This document shows, in pieces, positions 1,402 through 14,535 of a stretch of 19,958 nucleotides of DNA; within the stretch, counting starts at the first letter, position 1; every line of letters begins with the position of its first letter. Source of the DNA: a candidate division FCPU426 bacterium (lineage in GTDB: Bacteria; Oederibacteriota; Muellerivitia; Muellerivitales; Muellerivitaceae); assembly GCA_963738405.1 (NCBI GenBank), contig CAVTWJ010000006.1, positions 1 through 19,958 on the forward strand, in the 5' to 3' direction. A model generated the notes under the pieces. That model was not told where the DNA came from. It saw only the letters and a program-made list of their open reading frames with translations, and searched no databases. The position numbers were made by a program, and so were the translations under genes.

Positions 1402-1431
1402 TTGTCCAATGCGGGTCCCCGCCGTGGACAA
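1402..1431. repeat. Cassette-boundary palindromic site 1
   Basis: ttgtccaatgc-gggtcccc-gccgtggacaa; 1 bp from the stop codon of the 1433-1888 gene. Confidence 0.95.
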
Positions 1432-1432
1432 C

Positions 1433-1888
1433 CTACCCGGCTTGTTCGTAGTTCAAATCAACTTTGGCGTCCAAACGGCTAGCGGTCGCAATATAAGGTT
1501 CGCCGTTCTGGATAAACCCCGTGAAATCAATTAACGCTTTAGGACTAGCACACCATTTATGACCCTTCCTAAGTTCGCGCAGTTTCTCATCGGGGATAAA
1601 CTTGAAATCGAGATGAAGTTGCCAGATATCATCATCTTCACCTCCGCCTGTTATTAGTTGCCGGGCGATATCCAATTCAAAATGTTCGCCCTTGCCCCAA
1701 TTGTAGGTGCCCCATTGAAAAAGAAGTTGGTCCTGGCCCTCGTCATTACATCCATCAGCGCGTATTGTCCCATAAAACGAAAGCATGGCATCGATGCCTG
1801 CTGAAGTGATAAGTCGTTCAAAATTAAGTCCCCGGTTTATTAGATAATCTTCAAATTCTTTTTTTGCATTTTCCGGCTTCATTTTCAC
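1433..1888 (-). CDS. Hypothetical protein, cassette 1
   Basis: 151-aa ORF filling the space between sites 1 and 2. Start is GTG 1888 or ATG 1882. Family not recognised. Confidence 0.8.
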   Translation of the reverse strand: MKMKPENAKKEFEDYLINRGLNFERLITSAGIDAMLSFYGTIRADGCNDEGQDQLLFQWGTYNWGKGEHFELDIARQLITGGGEDDDIWQLHLDFKFIPDEKLRELRKGHKWCASPKALIDFTGFIQNGEPYIATASRLDAKVDLNYEQAG

Positions 1889-1896
1889 CCTTTATC

Positions 1897-1926
1897 TTGT
1901 TCACGATGGGTCCCCATCGTGGACAA
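1897..1926. repeat. Cassette-boundary palindromic site 2
   Basis: ttgttcacgat-gggtcccc-atcgtggacaa. Confidence 0.95.
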
Positions 1927-1928
1927 CC

Positions 1929-2357
1929 TTATTTCGTGCCTTTGATCACTTTCGTGATTTTAACGGTATCGACACAAACGAATTGCATCACACCTTTTTT
2001 GAAAGGAGTGATGGGATAAACTGTAAATGTTCCATAGACCTCAACATTCAAATCGTCCTTTAAAATTATTGATAAGTTTTCAGGAATAGGGCAACCATCT
2101 CGGACACCCACTATACGGTGGGTGCCAATCATCCAAATTTTGAGGGAAGTTAGATTTCCGTTCAGATAACTTGCCCGGCCCTTAAAAGTAAAACTCTTCC
2201 CAACAATTCGCGGGTCGTCGTGGCAGGGGCCTTTGAAATCCATATAAGGGTCCACGGTGGGCGTCGCGGTCATTTGATCAGCAAGAAGGGTTTGTCTAAT
2301 CGACATTCCCGATAAGAAAATAAGTAACAATGAAAGTTTAAATAAATTCTTGGTCAT
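1929..2357 (-). CDS. Hypothetical exported protein, cassette 2
   Basis: 142 aa with a signal-peptide-like N-terminus (MTKNLFKLSLLLIFLSG); fills the interval between sites 2 and 3. Confidence 0.8.
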   Translation of the reverse strand: MTKNLFKLSLLLIFLSGMSIRQTLLADQMTATPTVDPYMDFKGPCHDDPRIVGKSFTFKGRASYLNGNLTSLKIWMIGTHRIVGVRDGCPIPENLSIILKDDLNVEVYGTFTVYPITPFKKGVMQFVCVDTVKITKVIKGTK

Positions 2358-2378
2358 CAGATTCGCCTCACTTTTACC

Positions 2379-2408
2379 CTGTCCACGAAGGGTCCCCGTC
2401 GTGGACAG
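2379..2408. repeat. Cassette-boundary palindromic site 3
   Basis: ctgtccacgaa-gggtcccc-gtcgtggacag. Confidence 0.95.
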
Positions 2409-2435
2409 AACTAAACCAAGTTGTTCTCTTTGGAC

Positions 2436-3212
2436 CTATTCTCCCACAAGAAATTTCCGTCTTTTTTTGATATCCATTTTAAGCAAATAATCCAAAGCAC
2501 CCTTATTCGGCATTAGTTCTTTACCCGCTGCCAGGGCGATCGAATCATCGAATGTTAAAAGGTATTCTGCAAACAACAATCTTTCCGCTTTAGGTCTTTG
2601 ACGACAACTTGAAATAATTGCTTGAATGGCTGGCTTGTAATTAAGGTGAACCAATCCTTTTGCAGAAATAGATGCGACCTCCCCATTGGGGGACTTCAGC
2701 CCCTTCAAAAAAAGCGGAACATTGTCCAAATCCTTCATCATGGCGAAATATGTCAAATTTATCGGGCCTTCCTGGTAACCGACAATTAATTCTGCCTTCC
2801 AATCCAGCCCGCGATCCGAACACCACGTCAGGAATTCTTTAGATTGAGTATTGGGAATAAATTTACCGTTTTTATCGTAAACAGTAGGGTCGGGCATATC
2901 GCTGTCGATCAAAGGCTCAACCAAGGAAAGCAAATACTGTTTGTATTGGGGATCTTTATCTTTCAACAAAATCAATTCATAGGCGATCGCGCTTTTCTCC
3001 ATTTTGTGAAGTGTCTTTGTATTCTCATCAAGACCTGGTTGTTTCAATGAATCCGAGGCCTTTCGATATGCCTCTTCAAACTCCGGAATGGATTTAGTGC
3101 TTTTCTGCTGTTTCTCTTGCACCGGTGTAGGAGTAGGGTTATCACACCAACCCCAGATGGCAAAAGCATGAACTCCAAACAAGACGATAAATATCTTCAA
3201 ACAGATTTTCAT
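2436..3212 (-). CDS. Hypothetical exported, helical (possibly HEAT-repeat) protein, cassette 3
   Basis: Likely start is ATG 3212 (MKICLKIFIVLFGVHAFA, signal-like); the ORF-track extension to 3275 runs through site 4. HEAT-like segment VPLFLKGLKSPNGEVASISAKGLVHL. Confidence 0.75.
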   Translation of the reverse strand: MKICLKIFIVLFGVHAFAIWGWCDNPTPTPVQEKQQKSTKSIPEFEEAYRKASDSLKQPGLDENTKTLHKMEKSAIAYELILLKDKDPQYKQYLLSLVEPLIDSDMPDPTVYDKNGKFIPNTQSKEFLTWCSDRGLDWKAELIVGYQEGPINLTYFAMMKDLDNVPLFLKGLKSPNGEVASISAKGLVHLNYKPAIQAIISSCRQRPKAERLLFAEYLLTFDDSIALAAGKELMPNKGALDYLLKMDIKKRRKFLVGE

Positions 3213-3234
3213 CCACTTACCTTTCCACAATCGC

Positions 3235-3264
3235 CTGTCCACTACGGGTCCCCGTCGTGGACAA
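3235..3264. repeat. Cassette-boundary palindromic site 4
   Basis: ctgtccactac-gggtcccc-gtcgtggacaa. Confidence 0.95.
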
Positions 3265-3313
3265 ACCAAAATCATTGTTTTGTACTTTGCGGTTTTAATT
3301 TCTACTTTCCTGG

Positions 3314-3730
3314 TTATTTCTTAAGAAGGGATTCTAAATTAGGTGCCTCGCCCTCATATAACCCATCGATAGGATTGTAGTCACCGGACCTTTTTCTGTG
3401 TTTCTCTATAGCGTTTTTCCCATTTTCATCCAATTCTTTCCACAAACTTCTAATGCTGCAAACATGCCAATGCCGAAGAGTCTCTCCTTTATCAAAATCA
3501 TGCAGCTTCTTCCAATCAATTTCAGACAGATCCCATTTCCCTGAATAAGGGAACCCTAGATAGGGTTCATAAGGCGAGGTGCACCATAATTCATTGCAAA
3601 CAGAACATTTAGTAAGATAGATGTAATTGCCAACAATAACTTTTGTTAACTTGGGTAGCTTAGCTACAGGCATCGGTGGCCAAAGTCGTCGGCTGGGTGA
3701 CTGACATTCAGAACATTTTTCAGTATTCAA
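3314..3730 (-). CDS. Hypothetical protein with two CxxC motifs, cassette 4
   Basis: 138 aa, CSEC and CSVC motifs, TTG start preceded by a GGAG ribosome-binding site. Confidence 0.75.
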   Translation of the reverse strand: MNTEKCSECQSPSRRLWPPMPVAKLPKLTKVIVGNYIYLTKCSVCNELWCTSPYEPYLGFPYSGKWDLSEIDWKKLHDFDKGETLRHWHVCSIRSLWKELDENGKNAIEKHRKRSGDYNPIDGLYEGEAPNLESLLKK

Positions 3731-3755
3731 AAATCACTCCATAATTCTATTTTGC

Positions 3756-3785
3756 TTGTCCAATCCGGGCCCCCGTCGTGGACAA
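3756..3785. repeat. Cassette-boundary palindromic site 5
   Basis: ttgtccaatcc-gggccccc-gtcgtggacaa (one substitution in the core). Confidence 0.95.
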
Positions 3786-3787
3786 CC

Positions 3788-4222
3788 TTAATTGCTTGGG
3801 TGGATGGAACGAACATGTCGGACGTAGCTTTCTACTTCCAATTTTCCATGGGCGGCAATTCTGTCCATGTCCGCATCAGCGTGGACCAAGGTGAGATGAT
3901 GTTTGTGCGCTTTATAGGCAATCAGGGCATCAACCGTCTTCAGCTTGTGCCCTTTTTGGCGGTGCGCCCTCGTCCACTCAGCGGCTTCCGCCCATTCATG
4001 GGGTAATAAAGGAAAAGGGTGAAGGGCGGATAAATGAGCCGCCAAGAGGGCCGAATGGGCCTGGCTTTTTTCGGAGGAAACAAGCTCGAAGAAGATCGGA
4101 GAGGTGATGGCCGCCAGGTTATTTTCCACCAGTTCCTCCACCCTTGCGCGTATAACCTCCACGGGCCGGGGGCCCAGGGCGAAAATCCACGCGGAACTGT
4201 CGATCAAGTAAAGTTGATTCAA
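3788..4222 (-). CDS. vapC: PIN-domain toxin (VapC family)
   Basis: YLIDSSAWI, ELV, TVDALIA and LVHADADM are the PIN acidic motifs; overlaps the upstream antitoxin stop (ATGA). Confidence 0.9.
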   Translation of the reverse strand: MNQLYLIDSSAWIFALGPRPVEVIRARVEELVENNLAAITSPIFFELVSSEKSQAHSALLAAHLSALHPFPLLPHEWAEAAEWTRAHRQKGHKLKTVDALIAYKAHKHHLTLVHADADMDRIAAHGKLEVESYVRHVRSIHPSN

Positions 4223-4416
4223 CCCCTGGACTTTTTCAGCGATTTGAGCGGAAGATCAAGACGGAACTTGTCGAAATCCTTCACGAAACTTTTTCTTTGA
4301 ATATCGGCCAATAAGTTTCGCAAGCCGGTTTCCAGGACTTCCCGTTGGGAAACAATGCCCGTTTTCCGCTTTGCGCGTTTTAAGAGTTCTTCATCAATAT
4401 GGGTTGTGATTTTCAT
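4219..4416 (-). CDS. vapB: VapB-family antitoxin
   Basis: MKITTHIDEELLKRAKRKTGIVSQREVLETGLRNL; ATG 4416 with a GGAGGA RBS; translationally coupled to vapC. Confidence 0.85.
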   Translation of the reverse strand: MKITTHIDEELLKRAKRKTGIVSQREVLETGLRNLLADIQRKSFVKDFDKFRLDLPLKSLKKSRG

Positions 4417-4512
4417 TTCATCCTCCAAAGGTATGGCACTACTTACCATACTTATATCAAAACCAGGTCCCCAAGCCAATTGGGCGAAATATCGGAACTA
4501 ACCCTATTTGCC

Positions 4513-4542
4513 TTGTCCAATCCGGGTCCCCGTCGTGGACAA
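4513..4542. repeat. Cassette-boundary palindromic site 6
   Basis: ttgtccaatcc-gggtcccc-gtcgtggacaa; identical to site 7. Confidence 0.95.
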
Positions 4543-4599
4543 GCAAAAAACGTCATGTGGATGGTTAACTGGAAACCGCCGGCATTATTTCTAACGTGA

Positions 4600-5001
4600 T
4601 TAATCCAAGAAGTCATGGATGCTTAGTGCCGATTTCCCAGATGCTTTTCTCAAAGCTTTGTCTTCAGTTACCAACGGGACGTCCAGCATTTGGGCCAAGG
4701 CTAGGTAGTGGGCGTCGTAATAGCTTATTTTCTTTTCGGTCGAAAGTTGAAGCGCCAAGTCCGGATCGGACGGGATTTCACCCGGACTAAAAACCCCTTT
4801 AGCCGTTTGAAATAAATGAGCGGCCATCTTTGACGTGATATGTTTCTGGTGGATCATCAAGACCAAGGCATTGCCAAACTCATATTCCCAAAGCGGAGAT
4901 GTCCGCCAGTCCGGATCTTTTTCCTGCAAGCGTAATGCCGCCGCCGTCATCTCCCCTTCCACGATCCGGTAAACCAGAATATTGGCGTCCACCACGATCA
5001 T
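4600..5001 (-). CDS. vapC: PIN-domain toxin (VapC family)
   Basis: MIVVDANIL, YEFGNAL, SYYDAHYLALA, PLVTEDKAL; ATG 5001 overlaps the antitoxin TGA. Confidence 0.9.
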   Translation of the reverse strand: MIVVDANILVYRIVEGEMTAAALRLQEKDPDWRTSPLWEYEFGNALVLMIHQKHITSKMAAHLFQTAKGVFSPGEIPSDPDLALQLSTEKKISYYDAHYLALAQMLDVPLVTEDKALRKASGKSALSIHDFLD

Positions 5002-5216
5002 TGACGGCCCCAACGCTTTGCTTTATCGAGCCATTCATTGGTCGGCCGGAATTTCAATTTTACCGGAGTAGGGAGCCGGCCAATACCCGGCCTTTCCAAT
5101 GCCTGCTCCAGAATGGAGACCACTTGTTTGTTCATGGAGCGGTGATTGAGTTCGGCTTGCTCCTTCAATTTTTTTCGGATTTTTTCCGGAATGTTTTTAA
5201 TCAACAGGCTGGACAC
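4998..5216 (-). CDS. FitA/Arc-like ribbon-helix-helix antitoxin
   Basis: (M)SSLLIKNIPEKIRKKLKEQAELNHRSMNKQVVSILEQAL; GTG 5216 with an AGGGAGGT RBS. Confidence 0.85.
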   Translation of the reverse strand: MSSLLIKNIPEKIRKKLKEQAELNHRSMNKQVVSILEQALERPGIGRLPTPVKLKFRPTNEWLDKAKRWGRQ

Positions 5217-5280
5217 AAGGACCTCCCTAACAAAGGATATCAAAAAGATACCGTTATGATACCGTTTTGTCAATTGAGCC

Positions 5281-5310
5281 TTGTCCAATCCGGGTCCCCG
5301 TCGTGGACAA
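5281..5310. repeat. Cassette-boundary palindromic site 7
   Basis: ttgtccaatcc-gggtcccc-gtcgtggacaa. Confidence 0.95.
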
Positions 5311-5317
5311 GAATTTT

Positions 5318-5749
5318 TCAATTTTTAGCCATGCCGTGCCAATTCTCCATCTTCAGTTGATCGAAATGACGGTAATTCCGGATGTTGTTGGTGACCAGGA
5401 TCAAATCATGGACTTTCGCGATGGAAGCAATCTGCCCATCCGCGAATGCCGGTGTAAGTCCCAGCCTGGATAAACGGGCACGCTCCCGGCCGTGCCAAGC
5501 AGCCGCTTCCGTGTCATAAGGAAAAATTAACATGGAGGAGTTTGCTAATTCCGAAAGGAATTCCTCTAAAAGGGTCCGTTTTTCGGAGGGTGGCAAGCGG
5601 TCGCAGCCGAAGACGAGTTCATGCCAAACAATACTTGCGATTCCCATTTCGTCTTTGTGCCGCTCAAGTTTTCTCATCACATTGGGATTTGGTTTTACAC
5701 GGGCTGCTTCCGAAACGACATTGGTGTCTAACAAGTACCGGGGCTTCAC
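5318..5749 (-). CDS. vapC: PIN-domain toxin (VapC/FitB family)
   Basis: YLLDTNVVSE, VWHELVFG, ADGQIASIA, LVTNNIRNY; GTG start at 5749 (GTGA overlap) or 5752. Confidence 0.92.
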   Translation of the reverse strand: MKPRYLLDTNVVSEAARVKPNPNVMRKLERHKDEMGIASIVWHELVFGCDRLPPSEKRTLLEEFLSELANSSMLIFPYDTEAAAWHGRERARLSRLGLTPAFADGQIASIAKVHDLILVTNNIRNYRHFDQLKMENWHGMAKN

Positions 5750-6027
5750 CACTTAAATTCTCTTCCGGGTCCGGTTTCGCGGATTCCCCGGAGATCTTTA
5801 GGTTCCAAACCGGCCTTACTGGCTTTGATACGGCCGTGGAAGGCCGAAACAACCTCCCAAAACCCGGGACGGGGTGCGGTCAAATGCCGGTAGGCATCCA
5901 CCGATACCAAGACGGCAACCGGTTTCCCTCGCCGGGTTATCTCCACCGGCTTCCCTTTTTCCGCATCGTGGATGAGCCCGGGAAAATGGATTCGGGCCTG
6001 TGCAATGGTAAAGCTAGTTGGTGTCAC
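5746..6027 (-). CDS. Phd/YefM-family antitoxin
   Basis: TIAQARIHFPGLIHDAEKGKPVEITRRGKPVAVLVS signature; GTG 6027 after AAGGAG. Confidence 0.92.
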   Translation of the reverse strand: MTPTSFTIAQARIHFPGLIHDAEKGKPVEITRRGKPVAVLVSVDAYRHLTAPRPGFWEVVSAFHGRIKASKAGLEPKDLRGIRETGPGREFKW

Positions 6028-6108
6028 GAGCAACTCCTTATGTACATGATGATGTACATTTTATGCCCAAAGTTTCTCCGTGGCAAGTACTGATTATTGC
6101 TTTCTTAG

Positions 6109-6138
6109 GTGTCCACGATGGGTCCCCGCCGTGGACAA
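6109..6138. repeat. Cassette-boundary palindromic site 8
   Basis: gtgtccacgat-gggtcccc-gccgtggacaa. Confidence 0.95.
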
Positions 6139-6147
6139 GGTTTTTAA

Positions 6148-6492
6148 CTATTCGAATAATATAATTTTAAGGTTTTCGATCAACTTCACCTTATCGATCG
6201 GGTTTAACTCCCCCAAATGCTTGACGAACCGGCGGTTATCAATGGCCCGGATCTGATCAACCAAAATATCGGAGTCTTTCTTGAGGCTGGTTCCCTTTTT
6301 GGAAAGGTGAACCCGGAGTATCTCCGCTTCGCGAATGACGTGGGTGGTAACGGGACAAACAATAGTGCTGGGGTGTTGACTATCGTTTAAAAGGTTGGTT
6401 TGGAGAACGACGACCGGCCTTTTCTTGCCCGGCTCCGTCCCGAACCGAGGGCTTAGATCGGCCAGGTAGATATTAAATTTCCTGATTTTCAT
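6148..6492 (-). CDS. mazF: MazF/PemK-family toxin
   Basis: IYLADLSPRFGTEPGKKRPVVVLQ and DQIRAIDNRRF. Confidence 0.93.
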   Translation of the reverse strand: MKIRKFNIYLADLSPRFGTEPGKKRPVVVLQTNLLNDSQHPSTIVCPVTTHVIREAEILRVHLSKKGTSLKKDSDILVDQIRAIDNRRFVKHLGELNPIDKVKLIENLKIILFE

Positions 6493-6728
6493 TCAAGGGT
6501 TGCTTCTTCAAGTTTTTCCATCTCACTCAGGATATCCATGGAATTATTTCGCGTTAGCAGGGATTCTTTTTTTAATATTTGACGAAGTCCTTTGCGCCGG
6601 TTGAAAGCGTTATAAAAATCCAACGCCTCATTGATGTAGGTGTTTCGGGGCATATGAAGACGCTTGGTTTGGACTTCCACGTCCTCGAAAATCTCGTCTT
6701 TAATTTTAAGGGAAAGCACTTTGGTCAT
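6489..6728 (-). CDS. Putative ribbon-helix-helix antitoxin of MazF
   Basis: 79 aa, VLSLKIKDEIFEDVE...PRNTYINEALDFY RHH-like pattern, ATGA overlap with mazF, AAGGAG RBS. Confidence 0.8.
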   Translation of the reverse strand: MTKVLSLKIKDEIFEDVEVQTKRLHMPRNTYINEALDFYNAFNRRKGLRQILKKESLLTRNNSMDILSEMEKLEEATLE

Positions 6729-6851
6729 TTCGGGCTCCTTTGGGGGTATATACGAATAGTATATCCCTTCAAAGACCTTCTTTCGAACCCCTTCGCTTCA
6801 TTCACTCAATCGGGCTGGATCAATTGTTGTTTTAGCGGTAAAATAATTTAC

Positions 6852-7247
6852 ATGAAATTAACAAGCCGAACCAAGCCGTTCCTGATCGTTTTGATCGCCG
6901 CCCTGCTCCTGGTGGGGAGCGCGGGAGCCGCCTATTACGTTAAAAAAGGCGGGCAGCCGAATGACATCACCCTGCGCGCGGCCCGTCTTCAAAAAACCGA
7001 ATTGGACTTGGAATTCCTAAAGTCCGATCTGTCACGGCTTCAGCAAAGTTTGGAGGCCCAGCCCCAGGGCCGGATCTTATCGGATGAAACCCAGATCTTG
7101 CGGGAACGGATCAGCGGTGAACAAGCCGGCATCGAAACCGAACTGATGCGAATCACGGAGGATGCGGGGTATTTGCGCAGGCACTGGGCCGCCCTGACCC
7201 CTTCGCAAAAGGATTTGGTGGATTCGGTTCAGAAAAACCTTACCTAG
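6852..7247 (+). CDS. Hypothetical membrane-anchored coiled-coil protein
   Basis: ATG 6852, N-terminal hydrophobic stretch FLIVLIAALLLVGSAGAAYYV followed by a heptad-rich helix; only plus-strand gene within the array. Confidence 0.7.
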   Translation: MKLTSRTKPFLIVLIAALLLVGSAGAAYYVKKGGQPNDITLRAARLQKTELDLEFLKSDLSRLQQSLEAQPQGRILSDETQILRERISGEQAGIETELMRITEDAGYLRRHWAALTPSQKDLVDSVQKNLT

Positions 7248-7327
7248 TTCCCCGTCGTTTCATTCCTAGAAAATCCCCCAGGTTGATCAAAGTCTCCCCA
7301 TTGCTGCGATTCGCGAACCCTCGAATT

Positions 7328-7738
7328 CTAAGATTCTTTCTTGAGCGCGGGGTAAGGATATTTCAGCAGCCAGTCGAGGGCTTCCTGAAAATTCGTGAAG
7401 ACCCCGACGGGCATTCCCCGATTGGTCGCCACCACTTCGCCGAATTTTACGGGGTCCATCAGGGGAGGGTTCGCCACCACGGAGAACCGGCACTTTAGAA
7501 TTTCCCCTTTCGCCAAGGCGGTATGATATTTTTCAGCCCCGGCGGTCCCCATCGTGAAGCGCTGCAGGGTGGTGAGATTTCCCTCGGCCTTGCGAAGATC
7601 CGCCAGGACCCTGGTGTATTGATGGGCGCGGGCCGCCTCAATGAGCAGTTCCGGAAATTGGGTGGGGAAGAGTTCTTCCACGGCACCTTCAAAGGTCATG
7701 TGGAGGTAATTGGGTTTGATCTCGGTGGTTAGGTTCAC
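7328..7738 (-). CDS. SpoIIAA/STAS-SEC14-like hypothetical protein
   Basis: YLHMTFEG, RVLADLR and C-terminal FTNFQEALDWL are typical of this family. Confidence 0.65.
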   Translation of the reverse strand: MNLTTEIKPNYLHMTFEGAVEELFPTQFPELLIEAARAHQYTRVLADLRKAEGNLTTLQRFTMGTAGAEKYHTALAKGEILKCRFSVVANPPLMDPVKFGEVVATNRGMPVGVFTNFQEALDWLLKYPYPALKKES

Positions 7739-7766
7739 GGTGGGGAATATTAACTATTTTCTACTC

Positions 7767-7796
7767 AAAAACAAGGCCCTGGCCAGGGGCCTTTTT
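7767..7796. terminator. Possible bidirectional intrinsic terminator
   Basis: aaaaac-aaggccc-tggccag-gggcctt-ttt: GC-rich stem flanked by A and T runs. Confidence 0.5.
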
Positions 7797-7852
7797 GGGG
7801 GGCAACTCCAGCCGCTGAATAGGCCGGACCCCAACGTTCATGGAAATATGAC

Positions 7853-7906
7853 CTGTCCAATCTCACTGCACCAAGCCGGGGGCTTGGTGCTCCCCGTTGT
7901 GGACAG
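7853..7906. repeat. Expanded/degenerate cassette site 9 with an internal hairpin
   Basis: ctgtccaatc...tccccgttgtggacag with gcaccaagcc-ggg-ggcttggtgc (7868-7890) in the middle. Confidence 0.8.
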
Positions 7907-7911
7907 CAAAC

Positions 7912-8313
7912 CTAAAAAGTTTTCAAAAAGCTGGATGGATTCAGGATTTAAATATTTTGGTAGGTTCCGACATCCAACAGGGCCTTATCGCCCGAGACAA
8001 TGAATTCAGCTCCTCCCGCCAGGGCGGCTGCGATAAATTTATCATCATCGGGGTCCTTGCAAATGCCTCGAACAGGCTTAGCGTTCACCATTTCGCAATT
8101 CAATCTGATTAATTCCAGGAAGGGCTCAACTTCGACTCCAGGATGCCCCTTGGAAAAGTCTTCCATAACGCGGCGGTATTCTTCGAGAATTTCCAGGGAC
8201 ACCAATAACTTGAAATCACCACGTTCCCAAGATTTGAGGACTTGGTAAGGTGTCCCCATCCAGAAAAAACCAGAGACAAGAACATTTGTGTCTATGACAA
8301 CAACCCGTTTCAT
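7912..8313 (-). pseudogene. PIN-family toxin with a premature TAA at 7948-7950
   Basis: VVIDTNVLVS, CKDPDDDKFI, IVSGDKALL. The frame continues past the TAA as ILNPSSFLKTF to TAG at 7912, the C-terminal motif usual for this family. Confidence 0.75.
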
Positions 8314-8570
8314 TTACCGCGTCGAACGCGGGCAATGGCGGCCTTCACGTCTGATGGGCGTAATCCGGCGGCACGCGCCTGCTTTCGCGCGGCGGCCAGC
8401 AGGCTGCCAAGTTGGCTCAACGAAGGCGGGGTAATGGCTTTGAAAATCACCGAATCTCCCTGGCCCATCACGACAAACTGATCCCCCTCTTTGAGGCGCA
8501 AACTCTTGCGGATGGATTCGGGAATAACGACCTGTCCCTTCGAGGAAAGCTTTGTGGTTGCGATGGTCAT
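8310..8570 (-). CDS. AbrB/MazE/SpoVT-family antitoxin
   Basis: TTKLSSKGQVVIPESIRKSLRLKEGD signature; ATGA overlap with the PIN gene. Confidence 0.93.
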   Translation of the reverse strand: MTIATTKLSSKGQVVIPESIRKSLRLKEGDQFVVMGQGDSVIFKAITPPSLSQLGSLLAAARKQARAAGLRPSDVKAAIARVRRGK

Positions 8571-8634
8571 AGGTTACCTCCGAGTAATCTTACCAGTAAG
8601 AATACAACCGAAATCTAATCAATACAATCCACCG

Positions 8635-8852
8635 CTCACTCCAATGCTTTTATGGGACTGGGATCATCAGGGCGCAGATGCGCAAATGCCTATATAAGCA
8701 TTTGCACCGCCAAAACTCACACGCCAATGCTTTTTATGGCATTGGGGTTATCAAAGCGTGCGCCTTAGCTTGAGGCTAAGGCGCAGATGCACAAATGCCT
8801 TCATTGGCATTTGCATTGCCAAGACTCACACCCTAACTGGAAGTTAGGGTGT
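8635..8852. repeat. Intergenic cluster of direct and inverted repeats
   Basis: C(C/A)AATGC-N8-GCATT(G/T)G at 8683, 8724 and 8792, degenerate copy at 8641; duplicated ggcgcagatgc..aaatgcc...gcatttgca..gccaa.actcacac block; hairpins at 8759-8785 and 8828-8852. Confidence 0.85.
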
Positions 8853-10916
8853 AGGCACCCTTTCCACCCGGGTCACCTGTGGGCCTTGCGCACCTTCATG
8901 CACCCAAACCTTCAAGTCGATCGGCTGGGTGGAAACAACTTCCCCCGGGTAATGCTGGTCGCTTTTAGTGATCACCACACCCTCTATCAAAAACTGGTCC
9001 GAAGCGCCGTCGGTGCCCACCCATTGAGGAGGCTGGGTGGGTTTGAAGTAAGCCACCCATTTTTTGTCTTGGATTTCCTGAATCTTGGCGGGGGGGTAGT
9101 TTTCGTAGAAGAACTGGGCCTGGTAGCCATCAACGATTTCGCTTTTCAGGTTCGCCAGCCAGGTCGGGATGTCGTGGTAGCTGGGGCCGAAAGCATCGTC
9201 GGCGAAGATTTTTAGGAACATCTGGTACGCGGTGACCTTGGCTTGATCCTTGGGGGAAAGGGTGGGGGCCGCCTGGGTCGAGCCTTCAAGGCGAGACCCA
9301 AGACTTGGCTGTGCCGATTCCTTAGGGGAACCGGCCGCCTGGGTCGAGCCTTCAAGGCGAGACCCAAGACTTGGCTGTGCCGATTCCTTAGGGGAACCGG
9401 CCGCCTGGGTCGAGCCTTCAAGGCGAGACCCAAGACTTGGCTGTGCCGATTCCTTAGGGGAATCGGCCGCGGCGGGCGTAGGCGCGGGTTTCTCGCTGAC
9501 CACGACCGTGGCGGTATGTTTTGAAGTTTTCAAAGCGGCTCGTTTAGGCTCGATCTTCTTCACAACCGTTGCGAGAGTTGTTACCGCCATGGTTTGCGGG
9601 GCCTGATCGGCCTTGGGGGCCGAGGGGGCTGGTTTACTCCAAGAGGGAATAAACCCTTTAAGCCGGGCAACCAGATCGCCCGGATGAAACACATAAGTCC
9701 AAATAAGCCAAACCACCAACAGTATCGCCCCTACCCGGAGGAACCATATCACCACCGGCCCCAAGACCTTTTTCAAGCCGCTCCAGAGAAGATGGCCCAG
9801 GGCCGCGGCTTGTTTTTTCATTTCCTTGAAAACCCACCCGACCATGTGCCAGAAGAGCTTCCAGAGGGTCACAAGGGTCTTCCATAGGATTTGCCCCACC
9901 GCCTCCCAGGGGTTCTTGGCCAGCTTGCCAAAGATGGCCTTAACCCCCGCCCCCTCAAAGCCTTGCCAGACCTGTTTAAGGTCTTCCCCAAGAGTGGCTT
10001 GGGTCTTAGCTGTCTTGCTAGGGTTATGCCTTGTAGTGTGCTCAGCGGGCTCTACTTTAGGGTCTGCCGGTCCCTCGGCTTGCGTATCTATAGCGGGGGA
10101 CGAACCCTGCGTTTGGGCCACCTGCCCAGTCACGGCGGGTTGCTGCGGAACAACCGCCTTGGCGTGGGGGTTGTAGCTTTCGGGCTCATTGCCATCCTTA
10201 ACCCATTTGACCAGGCCTTTGGTTTCAGGCTCGGTTAGGTACTCATCGAAGACCTTCCGTAGGGCCCTTTCGACCTTGGCCGGGTCCCCAAGGTCGGCTA
10301 ATACCAGGAGGATGGACTCAGTTATCAAAAAACCCTTATTTTTCGTGCCCAGCGGCTGGGCATCCGAAATAAGGCCTTTTTGAAGATTTTCATCCACCAA
10401 GGCTCGGGAGGCTTGGTTGAGGGCTTTTGTAATCTTAAGGGCGTTATAAACTTTAGAGTCGGACACACCTTCCCAATCCGCCAATTCCCTTTGGGTCATA
10501 TTCGGTTGGTCTTCATGGTCAATGGCTATAGCCACATCCCAATCCCACCAGTCCATATCCTCATGCAGGTTGTCCAGAACGGCCTCATGGTGGGTCTCCC
10601 TTGGTTGGATATCATCCACGATGCATTTCAGGGTCTTCCATTGGTTAAGGATCGCCGCCGCCCGTCTTCGGTGACCGCCTATGTGCATGACCCAGTTACC
10701 GGGGTTGGCCGCCCGCTCTTCGTCCGTAAGGGGCCGAACCCTAACCGGGGTTCTCTGCCCCTTGGCTTTCATGGAAGCCGCCAGTTCCTGGATGGTTTCC
10801 TTCTTTTTGGACCGTCGGGGCTGTTTGGGGTTTTCGAGGATCTGGTCGATGGGGATTTCGACGACCTGGCCGATGGGATAGGGAAAGTCTGCTGGGACGG
10901 ACATAGGGACCTCCAA
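8844..10916 (-). CDS. ParB-like N-terminal domain fused to membrane segment(s), a low-complexity linker and a C-terminal domain
   Basis: IPIDQILENPKQPRR, IQELAASMKAKGQRTPVRVR, GGHRRRAAA (ParB CTP-binding motif), HTH MTQRELADWEGVSDSKVYNAL, hydrophobic VVIWFLRVGAILLVVWLIWTYVF. Confidence 0.85.
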   Translation of the reverse strand: MEVPMSVPADFPYPIGQVVEIPIDQILENPKQPRRSKKKETIQELAASMKAKGQRTPVRVRPLTDEERAANPGNWVMHIGGHRRRAAAILNQWKTLKCIVDDIQPRETHHEAVLDNLHEDMDWWDWDVAIAIDHEDQPNMTQRELADWEGVSDSKVYNALKITKALNQASRALVDENLQKGLISDAQPLGTKNKGFLITESILLVLADLGDPAKVERALRKVFDEYLTEPETKGLVKWVKDGNEPESYNPHAKAVVPQQPAVTGQVAQTQGSSPAIDTQAEGPADPKVEPAEHTTRHNPSKTAKTQATLGEDLKQVWQGFEGAGVKAIFGKLAKNPWEAVGQILWKTLVTLWKLFWHMVGWVFKEMKKQAAALGHLLWSGLKKVLGPVVIWFLRVGAILLVVWLIWTYVFHPGDLVARLKGFIPSWSKPAPSAPKADQAPQTMAVTTLATVVKKIEPKRAALKTSKHTATVVVSEKPAPTPAAADSPKESAQPSLGSRLEGSTQAAGSPKESAQPSLGSRLEGSTQAAGSPKESAQPSLGSRLEGSTQAAPTLSPKDQAKVTAYQMFLKIFADDAFGPSYHDIPTWLANLKSEIVDGYQAQFFYENYPPAKIQEIQDKKWVAYFKPTQPPQWVGTDGASDQFLIEGVVITKSDQHYPGEVVSTQPIDLKVWVHEGAQGPQVTRVERVPTP
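9267..9470. repeat. Three 66-bp tandem repeats within the ParB-like gene
   Basis: Units start at 9267, 9333 and 9399 and encode SPKESAQPSLGSRLEGSTQAAG. Confidence 0.97.
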
Positions 10917-11269
10917 ATAGGTGCTGAAAGATACTTTCCTAGCCCATTGGCCTCAAACCAATGGGCGGGCCTTGGTTATACCAATGCCCATAGAAGGCAT
11001 TGGTACATTACGGTGAAAATAATTCAGAGTCTTTTGGGAGGCAATTGGAAAATGAATCGGAAAGCCTTTTTTACCGGTCAAAAAAAGTGCAGTTTTTATC
11101 CCCTACAAAGATGTAACAGACCCATTGGAAAGTTAAGCGTTGGGGCGGTTTCTTGAAGGGTGTTGTTAATTTGAGATGTACGATAACGGTGTGATCGTTT
11201 CAGCAAATCCTAAAGTGTTAAGCGTTGGTCTGAACTCTTTTAAATTTATAATCAATTTCTGGAGATGGA

Positions 11270-12043
11270 GTGAATTGGATGAATTTTAATTTTGATAAAT
11301 TTTGGCGCGATCCGGTTTGGAGTGCGGTTATTGCGGCATTGATAAGCGGTGGCTTAATAGGACTTGTTCCGTATATTCATGCTGAATGGCCAAAGTTTCT
11401 CATTGGGATAGCTTTAATTTCCTTGGGGCTTGCGTGGTGGAAAATCAGCAAACTGCCAAGGTTGCAAGTCGAAATGAAAGTAGAAATGGATGAAAATTTA
11501 CCTCATGCCCCAATTATTCGTCTCGAATTCAGCAATTCAGGCTCCAAACCGATTTATGTCGTTTCGGCGGAATTCGTGACCAAAGAAAACTGGGCAATAC
11601 CTGATCCCGTAAGGTCGGGAACAATGCAGCCGGTGGTAAATTTTTTACCAAAGGGTGAAAAGTTTATTAAAGTTTCCAGCCAAAAGAATTCGGCGGCCAA
11701 TAAGGCTATAGATTTAACCCTAGAGCCTAAGAAATCCTCATCCATGTCATTTAGGCTCATTACGGACGAAATGCCTTTTTCCGGGCTAGGCCTTTTCCCC
11801 TTTTACCTGGAAGTTAGTTTGATATATGGGGAAAACGGTGATTTGCGAATCCCTTTACCCGATATTATCGTAAGCCTGCATGGTGGTTTATCTGTAAGTT
11901 ATGTCCAATTTGGCGGCCCGCAACCCTTAACCATCAAGCCGAGCGATTTAAAGAATCTTGCCAATATTGTTTTAAGCAAAGTGAATAAGAAGGTGCTTTG
12001 CCCACCCGAAATTCTAAAAATTTTAAGATCAGTAACTAAATAA
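11270..12043 (+). CDS. Hypothetical membrane protein (two N-terminal TM helices)
   Basis: 257-aa AT-rich ORF with two hydrophobic segments followed by a beta-rich domain. Confidence 0.75.
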   Translation: MNWMNFNFDKFWRDPVWSAVIAALISGGLIGLVPYIHAEWPKFLIGIALISLGLAWWKISKLPRLQVEMKVEMDENLPHAPIIRLEFSNSGSKPIYVVSAEFVTKENWAIPDPVRSGTMQPVVNFLPKGEKFIKVSSQKNSAANKAIDLTLEPKKSSSMSFRLITDEMPFSGLGLFPFYLEVSLIYGENGDLRIPLPDIIVSLHGGLSVSYVQFGGPQPLTIKPSDLKNLANIVLSKVNKKVLCPPEILKILRSVTK

Positions 12044-12122
12044 GTTGCCAAGGGTCGAAGCTTAAAGTGAAAAATGTAGGCCGGGACCCCTATTTCTTTA
12101 CTTCGTTTTCATGGGTGGCGCC

Positions 12123-12877: not shown

Positions 12878-13339
12878 ATGCCCGTTACCGCCAAAGCCAA
12901 AGCCGTACCCACCCTCTACCGCATCACCCCCGCGAAGAGGCTGCGCATTCCCCTTTACCTCACCCGGGTCTCGGCGGGCTCCTTTTCGCCCGCGGATGAT
13001 TACGTGGAAAAGGGGTTGGATATGAACGAACACCTCATCCAGCACCCAGCCGCCACCTTCGCCTTTCATGTGTCCGGAGATTCCATGGTGGGGGCGGGCA
13101 TCTTCCCCGGCGATCTTTTGATTGTGGACCGGGCGGTGAAGCCAGTCAGCGGGTCGGTGGTGGTGGCCAAGCTGGGGGGCGACCTGGTGTGCAAGCGCCT
13201 GAAGCTTGTGAAGGGAAAGGTCTTTCTGGCGCCCGAAAACCCGGCCTACAAGACCATCGAAGTGATCGATGACATGGAAGGTTTTGAAATCTGCGGGGTG
13301 CTGTTGCACAACATCCATTCGCATGGGGTGAAGAAGTAA
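12878..13339 (+). CDS. umuD: UmuD/LexA-family S24 autopeptidase (Pol V accessory subunit)
   Basis: VSAGSFSPADDYVE cleavage region, VSGDSM catalytic Ser, VCKRL catalytic Lys; TAATG coupling to umuC. Confidence 0.92.
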   Translation: MPVTAKAKAVPTLYRITPAKRLRIPLYLTRVSAGSFSPADDYVEKGLDMNEHLIQHPAATFAFHVSGDSMVGAGIFPGDLLIVDRAVKPVSGSVVVAKLGGDLVCKRLKLVKGKVFLAPENPAYKTIEVIDDMEGFEICGVLLHNIHSHGVKK

Positions 13340-14535
13340 TGGGTGCCGTTCAGCCAATAGCACTAATCGACTGCAATAATTTTTATTGCAGTTGCGAGCG
13401 GGTGTTTAACCCCAAGCTCACGGGCAAGCCCGTTATCGTCCTTTCCAACAACGACGGCATGCCCATTTCCCGATCCGAAGAGGCCAAGGCCGTCGGCATC
13501 GAAATGGCCAAGCCCTTCTTTGAGCTGAAAGACATCATCGAAAAACACAAGGTTCATGTTTTCAGTTCCAACTACACCCTCTATGGCGATTTTTCACGGC
13601 GGGTCATGCAAACCATCCGCCAGTTCAGCCCGATGGTTGAAGAATATTCCATCGACGAGGCCTTTGTAGGCCTGCAAGGCTTCGCCCATCGCGACCTTAC
13701 CGAATACGGCAGAGAAATGAAGGCCACCATTTACCAGTGGACGGGCATTCCGGTTTCGGTCGGCATCGCCCAAGACCAAGGCCTTTTTTACCTCGACCAA
13801 AAAATCGGCGAGCTTTACCCCGACGCCCGAAAAAGCGCCGGGTGGGACCCCCCAAAAGACGCTATCACCATCGGCATGCTTTTATCCATGACTTCCGGTT
13901 TGGACTGCAATGATATGGGAATCGGAAACCAAAATTGCGGGGCGGTGATGGGCCAATCTTCCAACTGGGTTTCCTTTGCCTTGGGGCTTCCCATGGCCCA
14001 TCCGCCCGGAACGGTTTGGACCTACAACGGATGCTGTTTGACCCTTCTTTCCCACGCCATCGCCGAAAAAACGGGGATGCGTTTTGCCGATTACGCCAAC
14101 CAATACCTTCTGCAGCCCTTGGGGATCAAAAATAACACCTGGGTCACCGGGCCCAACGGCGACAACCGGGTGGATTACGGCCTTTACTGGACATCCCGGG
14201 ATATGGCCAAGCTGGGACAGCTTTATTTGAACCAGGGCCTGTGGGAAGGCAAGCGCGTCGTTTCGGCGGACTGGGTGAAAGACGCCACGGCCGTTCACGC
14301 ACCCAGGGGCCAGGCTTTCGGCCACGATTACGGCTACCTGTGGCACATCAAAACCATGCTTTGGAAAAACCGCCCGATCCGGGTGTTTTTCGCCAACGGC
14401 TACATGGGCCAGGAAATTTACGTGTCCCCCGACGCGGATTTGGTTTGCGTGATGACGGCGGCCAGCTCCAGCGCTTTGATTTATTCGATGGAAGATCATT
14501 TTTTGGAGAACGTGATATTGGATTCGATTCAATAG
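13339..14535 (+). pseudogene. umuC: Chimeric ORF: N-terminal UmuC (Y-family polymerase) fragment fused in frame to a C-terminal beta-lactamase-family serine hydrolase fragment
   Basis: ALIDCNNFYCSCER, VLSNNDG, YSIDEAF up to TGIPVSVGIA (about 13770), then DQGL...ITIGMLLSMTSGL, PGTVWTYN, SRDMAKLGQLYL, YGYLW, ANGYMGQ. UmuC C-terminal domains and the hydrolase SxxK motif are absent. Confidence 0.85.

Follow-up and report, generated by a model that had tools for sequence, protein, structure and literature searches.

A conserved 28-bp palindrome bounds one-directional arrays of accessory genes in a group of uncultured bacteria

The array in the window

We analysed a stretch of 19,958 nucleotides (the window). 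It carries an array of minus-strand genes and toxin-antitoxin (TA) pairs separated by short palindromic sites, all on the plus strand:

42-1388, plus: NtrC-like regulator gene, convergent with the array
1402..1431, plus: site 1 (48.2 bits), 14 nt past the stop codon of the regulator gene above
1433..1888, minus: cassette gene, 151 aa, without a Pfam, NCBIfam or PADLOC match
1897..1926, plus: site 2, left hexamer TGTTCA
1929..2357, minus: cassette gene, 142 aa, without a family match
2379..2408, plus: site 3
2436..3275, minus: cassette gene, listed ORF 279 aa, without a family match
3235..3264, plus: site 4
3314..3730, minus: cassette gene, 138 aa, without a family match
3756..3785, plus: site 5, core GGGCCCCC
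3788..4479, minus: VapB-VapC (PIN) TA cassette
4513..4542, plus: site 6
4600..5321, minus: cassette of PIN toxin and FitA-like ribbon-helix-helix antitoxin; the listed antitoxin ORF overruns site 7
5281..5310, plus: site 7
5318..6033, minus: cassette of PIN toxin and Phd/YefM antitoxin
6109..6138, plus: site 8
6148..6728, minus: MazF/PemK toxin and 79-aa antitoxin
6852..7738: two unassigned genes (6852-7247, plus; 7328-7738, minus) without an intervening site
7767..7795, minus: G+C hairpin and, past it on the gene strand, a T run
7853..7906, plus: expanded or degenerate site; outer arms kept, 27-nt insert in place of GGG
7948..8570, minus: PIN_3 toxin and AbrB/MazE-type antitoxin, the most upstream cassette-like unit

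The preliminary description had reported eight 30-bp copies in one orientation, and all eight were confirmed on the plus strand, with the core GGGTCCCC in seven and GGGCCCCC in one (at 3767). The chance expectation for these eight co-oriented copies and the expanded one is 0.00. The pattern TGTCCANNNNGGGYCCCCNNCGTGGACA, allowing up to two mismatches, matched the same eight places only (0.00 expected over 200 shuffles). The remaining three GGGYCCCC matches in the window (4168, minus; 10282, plus; 17859, minus) lack arms. The expanded copy, which stands where it had been described, retains both outer hexamers and 15 of the 16 right-half bases. Its 27-nt insert consists of CAC plus a GCACCAAGCC/GGCTTGGTGC hairpin, and this inner hairpin is 10 bp long. 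The pattern TGTCCAN{16,46}TGGACA recovers it together with seven of the eight sites (0.03 expected); a covariance model of the site gave it no score.

Site starts are spaced by 495, 482, 856, 521, 757, 768 and 828 bp, and stop codons lie 1, 2, 27, 49, 2, 57, 7 and 9 nt from a site. Both series agree with the ORF table, and every interval is indeed occupied by a single minus-strand gene or a single TA pair. As the 279-aa ORF in the table runs into site 4, its true start is probably an internal ATG near 3213. Only one terminator-like call, that of the hairpin at 7767..7795, falls on the gene strand inside the array (7793-7773). The array has a G+C content of 42-51%, compared with 53-62% in most of the flanks.

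The site family in related genomes

A scan of 185,579 species genomes returned at least 56 loci in at least eight MAG assemblies. In these related assemblies the site bounds arrays of differing cargo, which supports the earlier claim of co-oriented cassette arrays delimited by their own site. Sites were counted at up to four mismatches in the window and 524 kb of locus sequence, with 10-kb flanks per locus. Of 153 sites in total, 119 lie in clusters of at least three, 26 in pairs and 8 singly. A phage collection had no match to the site, and two partial matches in Streptomyces plasmids (23 of 40 bases, E = 0.5) were set aside as chance.

The sites follow an orientation rule. Among 145 clustered sites, 143 are direct repeats and only two have the minority orientation. 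One complete 28.5-kb contig carries 17 sites on a single strand, with nearly all ORFs on the opposite strand. Site spacing ranges from 57 to 3528 nt (median 840), and the intervals between sites (n = 108) hold one ORF in 69 cases and two in 21. The stop codon of a co-oriented gene faces the site in 130 of 148 cases (median gap 27 nt); in 101 of these 130 the site is 1-60 nt past the stop, tied to the gene strand. The next gene runs in the same direction at 118 of 148 sites, a median of 51.5 nt away. Across the site-bearing loci and the window, the cargo is the kind that integrons carry, with many TA pairs alongside GNATs, reductases, regulators and numerous proteins of no family. Such palindrome-bounded, one-directional runs of accessory and TA genes are a feature of this group of uncultured bacteria. 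Single sites and pairs adjoin ordinary genes, among them atpG, hflX and those for cytochrome bc, and long stretches of housekeeping genes in array loci are free of sites (one locus, L041, has two sites in 20 kb).

The conserved unit is a fixed 28-bp palindrome with the consensus TGTCCACGACGGG-TC-CCCGTCGTGGACA. Counting the weakly conserved outermost Y/R pair gives 30 bp. The site had been presented as a 30-bp 11-8-11 element; it is palindromic, but that parse is not privileged, as the perfect palindrome of the consensus divides into 13-2-13 or equally 11-6-11. Its length is fixed: of 103 outer-hexamer pairs, 96 enclose exactly 16 nt. Of 142 sites, 111 have GGGTCCCC at the centre, and conservation ends about 1 nt outside the palindrome on either side. 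The arms are not equally conserved. Across an unbiased set of 112 sites, the one on the downstream-cassette side is at least two bases off consensus in 35 and the other in 10, and an alternative allele, NTCC, recurs in the variable arm.

Folded as DNA, the sites are predicted to form stable stems of -8.8 to -11.9 kcal/mol (z-scores -3.3 to -4.7). Arm pairing is barely higher than in a shuffled control (85.6% vs 84.5%), with little compensatory change between arms, and one arm often breaks the stem (at least three unpaired inner positions in 23 of 112 sites). Variant-arm sites fold as an outer stem, a 3x3 internal loop, a 3-bp inner stem and a loop. An unpaired GTAG or CGTC tag was not found at the palindrome, where TGTC pairs with GACA. 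Integron attC sites are 50-150 bp long and variable in length, with R and L boxes, an unpaired spacer and extrahelical bases. The palindrome lacks the R-box motif RYYYAAC/GTTRRRY, and its consensus has neither extrahelical bases nor an unpaired spacer. A dif site has conserved inner arms around a variable centre. Here this is reversed: the centre and outer arm bases are kept and the inner arm bases vary. We rejected the palindrome as an attC, a tagged REP or an intrinsic terminator, and, on this conservation pattern, as a dif-like site. The earlier statement that neither attC nor dif fits holds for attC and for likeness to dif in sequence, but 28 bp read as 11-6-11 formally fits dif architecture.

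Breakpoints and insertions at the sites

Cassette order and content differ among genomes, with the breakpoints falling at sites. CAVYRH010000015.1 and three other contigs share a 920-bp cassette at 100% identity; it stands in two different arrays, and its homology stops at both flanking sites. Cassettes A (VapBC) and B are arranged A-site-B in CAWJKT010000009.1 and B-site-A in CAZGKT010000055.1. In three copies of a Cas1-Cas2 unit (99.7-99.8% identical), homology begins at or inside the site: all share a variant downstream arm but not the upstream arm or flank. In two MAGs an orthologous MFS transporter gene (85% nt) precedes wholly different cassettes. Of 932 HSP ends, 13.6% lie no more than 6 nt from a site, vs 1.1% expected by position alone, although many of these ends are those of introns. 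All four ends lie at sites in only 4 of 233 HSPs, representing two cassettes, and clean cassette-level homologies are few.

Homologues of window cassettes also adjoin the site in other genomes, as the preliminary description would lead one to expect: VapBC (81% nt) in CAWJKT010000009.1 and MazEF (84% nt) within the array of CAVYRH010000015.1. Departures from this pattern also occur. A GH43 gene is flanked on both sides by the palindrome in one MAG, but in another no site lies within 7 kb of it. The MazEF homologue lacks the downstream site, no site stands at the 3' end of the Cas1-Cas2 unit, and the VapBC homologues bear differing variants of the supposedly cassette-linked arm.

The site is a landing pad for group II introns and IS110 elements. 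All six Rfam matches to group-II D1-D4 begin 48-57 nt past a site, repeated intron units start 2 nt past the palindrome, and an IS110-family element begins at a site edge. Known targets of class C introns include terminators and attC sites (PMC4424553).

Possible origins of the arrays

The preliminary description had suggested looking for a recombinase next to the arrays. Among 507 proteins (480 from the loci and 27 from the window), none was consistently adjacent, and neither an integron integrase nor a site-flanked RAYT was found. One partial phage-type tyrosine integrase lies at a contig end, and one serine-recombinase fragment is pseudogenised. The sole Y1 transposase among the 480 proteins is 5.7 kb from the nearest site and not motif-flanked.

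The reading we favour, tentatively and at a little short of an even chance, is that mobile gene cassettes are bounded by the palindrome and exchanged at it, and that a site-specific recombinase, encoded elsewhere in the genome, would use it as its core site. Of the proposed capture and shuffling system with its own recombination site, the breakpoints at sites stand; because a recombinase was not found, we infer the dedicated system, including that an enzyme and not homologous recombination would carry out the exchange, and of what type. A cassette would be one gene or TA pair followed by one site a few bases past the stop. As the sites in an array are all direct repeats, recombination between two would excise a circle carrying one site. 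This circle could re-enter at any resident site, building long one-directional arrays. In many cassettes the 5' leader is almost absent, so transcription must pass the hairpins from promoters in cassettes further upstream, the TA pairs for example. The fixed length, near-invariant asymmetric centre and two unequal arms would fit a double-stranded core site of tyrosine-recombinase type. Crossover would fall inside the site. The conserved arm lies on the side of the upstream stop, and the variable arm would travel with the downstream cassette.

This proposal has a parallel in the pdif modules of Acinetobacter plasmids, whose sites also read as 28-bp 11-6-11, have one more conserved arm and bound small accessory or TA modules. 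The pdif modules are Xer-dependent, with the recombinase supplied in trans by the host (PMC6449649), as would be the case for the present arrays. The palindrome differs from dif in sequence, and its direct repeats in chromosomal arrays contrast with the inverted dif-like repeats that flank the first dif modules described (PMC6449649).

A serious rival, possible though on balance unlikely, is a new REP-like family: a selfish or structural palindrome spreading downstream of genes, with the cassette-like rearrangements as by-products of homologous recombination among 28-bp copies dispersed through accessory regions, and no dedicated recombinase. For rare homologous recombination, 28 bp of identity might be enough. 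The palindrome falls within the loose description of REPs as 20-40-bp palindromes of many copies, mostly in unidirectional or convergent spacers near the 3' end of the upstream ORF (PMC3733652), and REP/BIME elements, including CGTC-tagged REPs and Neisseria dRS3 clusters, share its extragenic position just past ORFs in unidirectional spacers (PMC3733652). Some REP families cluster in blocks, and a TGTC variant of the CGTC tag is known (PMC3733652). REPs are also a target of IS110-family elements, which insert in them (PMC12288879). That no recombinase was found near the arrays, that sites occur beside ordinary genes, and that homologues exist with and without the site would all fit. However, an unpaired tag or CCA tail is missing here, no flanking RAYT was found among the 507 proteins, and the lone Y1 transposase is not flanked by the motif. 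The sites are strictly direct repeats coupled to the genes, whereas in many REP families the copies form inverted pairs (PMC3733652). Nearly every gene in arrays of up to 28 kb of unrelated accessory genes has one site after it, while housekeeping stretches in the same loci do not; the unequal arms, scant compensatory change and gene-content breakpoints at sites also argue against this family. A role in RNA, in which an intercistronic stem-loop would serve to stabilise, process or partly terminate the long polycistronic transcripts of the arrays and be oriented by their needs, is improbable as the explanation and could coexist with a role in DNA. It would account for the position past stop codons and the stable predicted stems, and many downstream leaders have no room for a promoter, which means that transcription has to run through the hairpin. 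The site also resembles the terminators that class C group II introns target, as G+C-rich post-gene stem-loops with sense-oriented introns a few bases downstream (PMC4424553). But a T run follows on the gene strand in none of the eight window sites, pairing is hardly above the shuffled control in stems that are often broken, and near-identity of bases over unrelated genes and genomes requires copying, not convergence. The breakpoints are left unexplained by an RNA role.

By analogy the arrays are integron-like, but with another site and without a known recombinase. Like sedentary chromosomal integrons and CALIN, they are long, co-oriented and mostly promoterless one-gene arrays with a palindromic site after each cassette, rich in TA pairs and no-family proteins, variable among relatives, and targeted by group II introns and IS110-family elements. 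That they are true CALIN, with miniature attC folded as single strands and IntI encoded elsewhere, nevertheless seems very improbable to us. CALIN without a nearby intI are common (PMC4889954). The variant-arm fold, with its 3x3 internal loop, faintly recalls the R box, spacer and L box. Against this stand the fixed 28-bp length in place of a variable-length attC, conservation that ends with the palindrome, a perfect-palindrome consensus without attC features, and an IntI not found among the 507 proteins. The homology boundary here appears inside the site, whereas in integrons it lies at one edge. We give the least credence, very little indeed, to Cas1-Cas2 inserting gene-sized DNA at a CRISPR-like 28-bp repeat and duplicating it, with genes in place of spacers. 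The three Cas1 and Cas2-like units, all in one MAG, each start directly at a site with neither effector genes nor a CRISPR array in view, and the repeats are direct, palindromic and 28 bp long. Yet Cas1 occurs in only one of eight assemblies among the matches listed and is missing from the window, its score is that of an ordinary CRISPR Cas1, the unit's 3' end is siteless, and the wide spacing of the sites is not CRISPR-like.

The 28-bp site and its array in the window

Eight co-oriented palindromic copies had been described from the sequence alone, and all eight are present at exactly those coordinates, together with an expanded ninth copy:

Starts from 1402 to 6109, plus strand: eight copies of the site, each ending a cassette whose genes lie on the minus strand
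7853-7906: expanded copy of the site

The spacings and stop-to-site gaps of the preliminary description agree with the ORF table, and its rule that each interval holds one minus-strand gene or one TA pair holds in the window. When the pattern TGTCCANNNNGGGYCCCCNNCGTGGACA was searched at up to two mismatches, the 8 known places and nothing else were found, with 0 expected (200 shuffles). A covariance model (R1) trained on 142 sites detected the 8 known window sites and no degenerate extra ones in the window; it left the expanded copy unscored. That copy retains both outer hexamers and nearly the whole right half, with a 27-nt insert in place of GGG that forms a 10-bp inner hairpin. At the gathering threshold, Rfam held no family for the site and gave no match in the window.

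In the window, the cargo comprises three PIN-type TA pairs, one MazEF pair and four proteins for which Pfam, NCBIfam and PADLOC gave no match; a PIN_3/AbrB pair lies past the expanded copy. PADLOC placed none of the 11 unassigned window proteins in a known defence family. The GC content of the array is 42-51%, compared to 53-62% in most flanking kilobases.

The site consensus is a perfect palindrome, TGTCCACGACGGG-TC-CCCGTCGTGGACA, which can be parsed as 13-2-13 or as 11-6-11. Its length is fixed: a 16-nt interior separates the outer hexamers in 96 of 103 hexamer pairs, and conservation outside the 28 bp extends to about one base per side at most. Among these 103 pairs, the window copy is the only single site whose interior is enlarged. 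Five other long-gap pairs bridge neighbouring or unrelated hexamers, and we therefore rejected expanded sites as a general feature. The centre, GGGTCCCC, is retained in 111 of 142 sites and conservation of the outer hexamers is 90% or more, while the inner 4 bases of the arms are variable. We compared the arms in 112 sites chosen by exact centre and outer hexamers only. The arm facing the downstream cassette had at least two departures from consensus in 35 of these sites, compared to 10 for the arm facing the upstream stop codon. An alternative form, NTCC, recurs in the variable arm and occupies both arms in rare sites.

Because the palindrome is nearly perfect, its orientation is carried by the central TC and the unequal arms, and the tight coupling of the site to gene direction is therefore informative. 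Hairpin pairing hardly exceeded the shuffled control (85.6%, compared to 84.5%) and compensatory change was slight; for the outer T-A/C-G pair, covariation did not reach significance (Fisher p = 0.13). Given this weak covariation test, we do not claim a selected fold. A double-stranded core site bound by protein agrees better with the fixed length, the near-invariant asymmetric centre and the unequal arms. One region from another assembly contains two composite double sites (L009:10921-11005 and 12006-12090) on either side of one cassette; each comprises a degenerate copy, a similar spacer of ~29 nt and then a copy with an alternative AATC form in both arms.

Arrays in other genomes and the proposed movement of cassettes

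When one genome per species was scanned, the site was found in at least 56 loci in at least 8 MAG assemblies. By title, one of the 8 assemblies listed is Candidatus Firestonebacteria, three are "Proteobacteria bacterium" or "uncultured proteobacterium", and four are identified as bacteria only. Among the matches listed, the window's own genome is absent, and the DNA nearest to the window is 80-84% identical over single genes only. Sites with their 10-kb flanks were merged into 33 regions (524 kb in total) and rescanned at up to four mismatches, which gave at least 145 sites, or 153 with the 8 in the window; these MAGs may be strain mixtures. A BLAST search with window 4508-4547 (the site extended by 5-6 nt at either end) returned no match in the phage collection and only two chance partial matches, to Streptomyces plasmids, in the plasmid collection. 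The site and its arrays are undescribed in the literature as far as we found, and the REP family tables of PMC3733652 might include a similar repeat.

When sites separated by gaps of up to 4 kb are clustered, 119 of the 153 fall in clusters of three or more, 26 are paired and 8 are solitary. Direct repeats make up 143 of 145 clustered sites, with 2 in the minority orientation, and the spacing ranges from 57 to 3528 nt (median 840 nt). Along the whole of one 28.5-kb contig, 17 sites occupy one strand and almost all ORFs the opposite one. This contig opens with a fluoride riboswitch (L020:31-96, minus strand; Rfam RF01734, 51 bits) adjoining an ORF-less group II intron. By crude ORF calls, a co-oriented gene has its stop towards the site at 130 of 148 sites (median gap 27 nt), and the next gene runs in the same direction at 118 of 148 (median leader ~51 nt). 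Intervals hold one ORF in 69 of 108 cases and two in 21. As in integrons, the cassettes are co-oriented units of ORF then site whose content varies among relatives.

To characterize the neighbouring genes, we scanned 480 representative locus proteins, one per similarity cluster, a set made up of ORFs of at least 70 aa near sites and at least 120 aa elsewhere. The genes that adjoin sites form a typical accessory set, in which numerous TA pairs occur alongside GNAT acetyltransferases, aldo-keto reductases, AraC regulators, LRR/NHL/Kelch proteins, hydrolases, transporters and a lone Cas1-Cas2; many further proteins belong to no family. At these loci, housekeeping genes are mostly free of sites (DNA polymerase I, a tRNA ligase, S20, MurJ, MutL, MiaA, riboflavin genes, NusB and GroEL). 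Single or paired sites adjoin atpG, hflX and cytochrome bc genes, usually behind a small inserted ORF.

Several comparisons support movement of the cassettes. A 920-bp unit, consisting of a site, a gene for a 257-aa membrane protein and a second site, is 100% identical in CAVYRH010000015.1 and three other contigs of the same MAG; both flanks of its copies are unrelated, and homology ends at the outer edges of the sites. Cassette order differs between genomes, as the preliminary description had suggested checking: a VapBC cassette (A) and a second cassette (B) are arranged A-site-B in CAWJKT010000009.1 and B-site-A in CAZGKT010000055.1. The arrays that follow an orthologous MFS gene (85% nucleotide identity) in two MAGs share no cassette, and the sites preceding hflX in two assemblies carry different content. 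The VapBC and MazEF cassettes of the window have homologues at 81-84% nucleotide identity in other arrays. Ends of HSPs lie within 6 nt of a site in 13.6% of 932 cases, compared to 1.1% expected, with introns supplying much of this share.

Other observations count against a cassette reading. Clean four-end matches were obtained for two cassettes only. A GH43 gene that lies between sites in one MAG is site-free in another. Whether arm variants travel with cassettes gave a mixed picture: they do with the Cas1-Cas2 unit and with cassette A, but not with VapBC, whose homologues differ in their variants.

The Cas1 gene, with an overlapping Cas2-like 111-aa ORF, is found in one assembly only, where three copies share 99.7-99.8% identity (L043:10603-12109, with others in L002 and L035). 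Every copy begins at a site, and cas1 is broken in one of them. Homology begins at or inside the site: an unusual downstream arm is common to all copies, while the upstream arm and flank differ, placing the homology boundary within the site. However, a site is missing from the 3' end of the unit, which counts against a cassette reading. Neither a CRISPR array nor effector genes were seen around the copies.

Group II introns and IS110-family elements also meet the site. All six Rfam group-II D1-D4 matches start 48-57 nt past a site, with domain V further on. The 830-bp units present in multiple copies are introns that lack an ORF, and other introns bear RT/maturase genes. Intron units begin 2 nt beyond the palindrome in the sense orientation, and IS110-family elements begin at the site edge. 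Class C introns insert behind terminators and at attC sites (available portion of PMC4424553), and IS110 elements are reported within REPs (excerpted text of PMC12288879). These insertions show that the site can be recognised as a target, by its stem-loop or its sequence; they do not discriminate among the models.

Competing explanations and the search for a recombinase

Integrons are the textbook route by which bacteria bank and reshuffle single genes, and Xer/dif modules were the one other site-defined cassette system that we considered. The best-supported reading, which we hold tentatively, is that the direct 28-bp sites are exchange points of circularisable one-gene cassettes. The proposed recombinase, encoded elsewhere, would act on these direct sites, and promoter-bearing cassettes such as TA pairs would drive promoterless ones downstream. 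It is possible, if somewhat doubtful, that the arrays form a third gene-cassette platform beside integrons and Xer/dif, in which a clade of uncultured bacteria stockpiles and reshuffles accessory genes at a dedicated palindromic core site of fixed 28-bp length, with the crossover inside it and a putative trans-encoded recombinase.

The arrays behave like an integron or CALIN, but a true integron with a mini-attC is unlikely. In the accessible part of PMC4889954, attC sites are described by R/L boxes, an unpaired central spacer, extrahelical bases and a loop of variable length, and these features are lacking here, as is IntI among the 480 locus and 27 window proteins. The earlier view that the site is not attC (taking the R-box motif RYYYAAC...GTTRRRY as it was quoted there) is borne out by the perfect 13-2-13 palindrome, the fixed 16-nt interior and the lack of wider conservation. 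The same description held that dif does not fit, which proved correct for conservation and orientation, whereas the 28-bp, 11-6-11 architecture fits formally, and one better-conserved arm is common to both (PMC6449649, as partially available). According to that portion, inner arm bases of dif sites are conserved and outer bases and the central region vary; here the pattern is reversed, with the centre and outer hexamers kept and the inner 4 bases variable. The first dif module described there has inverted flanking repeats, in contrast to the direct orientation of our clustered sites.

The main rival is a new REP-like repeat, with occasional homologous exchange through its copies, which we consider less likely than the cassette reading. 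The 28-bp site answers to the loose description in the available sections of PMC3733652 (20-40-bp palindromes, present many times, in the unidirectional or convergent spacers that follow ORFs). However, the unpaired GTAG/CGTC (TGTC) tag described there is absent, since the 5' TGTC pairs with the 3' GACA (each pair in at least 123 of 142 sites). The site also has no CCA tail. Among the 480 locus proteins, the one Y1 transposase, the class to which a RAYT would belong, has no copy of the motif in its flanks. A role at the RNA level may coexist with either the cassette or the REP model. The site is not an intrinsic terminator: a T run follows it on the gene (minus) strand in 0 of 8 window sites, and a terminator call at site 2 is on the antisense strand only. 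Nor is the array a CRISPR array: the unique spacers of ~30-40 nt and adjoining cas genes of such arrays contrast with the site spacing found here and with the presence of Cas1-Cas2 in one assembly only, and the two 57-nt pairs share similar "spacers". A Cas1-driven process behind the arrays is unlikely, and the boldest variant, in which solo Cas1-Cas2 units at repeats perform the insertions, is highly improbable. If it were correct, gene-cassette arrays would be linked to the origin of CRISPR arrays.

The preliminary description proposed a separate capture and shuffling system; the behaviour of the arrays agrees with this, but no recombinase was identified among the 480 locus and 27 window proteins. 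These proteins include no IntI, and the window and the loci examined contain no xer genes. We set aside the 690-aa ParB_N protein heading the window array, which is partition-type and site-followed in a relative. The same applies to the 257-aa protein of the 920-bp cassette, whose hydrophobic N-terminal segments read by eye as those of a membrane protein, and to a multi-copy "132-aa ORF" antisense to ORF-less group II introns. The sole Phage_integrase match (L034:10722-11663) is a truncated phage-type protein with an arm-type N-terminus, scoring 43 bits against a TIGR02249 cut-off of 265. Between a site and this truncated integrase gene, at the contig end, lie about ten units of ~55-60 nt (L034:10100-10840), each with a TTGGTAG-like motif and then a different small hairpin. 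A serine recombinase at L014:8564-9120 was rejected as a pseudogene of single occurrence; it is frameshifted and retains only the Recombinase domain of a large serine recombinase, and its frame enters a site and terminates there. The one Y1_Tnp among the 480 locus proteins, an IS200-like transposase (L044:2496-2930), was also set aside; the motif does not flank it, and its nearest site is 5.7 kb off.

If the arrays are a further cassette system in an uncultured lineage, cassette platforms evolved more than once. Cassette exchange at the site would also account for the assembly of TA-rich accessory islands in these genomes and would supply a simple 28-bp recombination target that may serve as a tool. 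Even if only REP-like, the site is an unusually clean palindrome that marks gene-content breakpoints and draws group II introns and IS110.

Other features of the window

Further genes in the window were noted:

8844-10916: ParB_N protein gene, with three perfect 66-nt tandem repeats at 9267-9470
12878-13339: intact UmuD-like S24 peptidase gene
13339-14535: single ORF directly downstream of the peptidase gene, encoding the N-terminal ~145 residues of a UmuC-type (IMS) polymerase joined to a beta-lactamase-family domain
16807-19242: secreted GH16-malectin protein of 811 aa whose long repetitive linker is rich in Thr/Pro; a GH64 beta-1,3-glucanase gene comes next

The flanks of the ParB_N gene (8600-8840 and 10940-11005) contain palindromes of the form CCAATGCC-N7-GGCATTGG or GCAAATGCC...GGCATTTGC, among them two 57-nt repeat units at 8671-8727 and 8780-8836. 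These palindromes may be the protein's own putative binding sites. In CAVYRH contigs, the 28-bp site follows the ParB_N homologues instead of those palindromes. The beta-lactamase-family domain at 13339-14535 lacks its first ~66 profile positions, and the fusion near 13780 resembles either the junction of an in-frame deletion or a chimera of the assembly. In a related MAG, a malectin-bearing GH43 gene is flanked by the 28-bp site, with one copy on each side.
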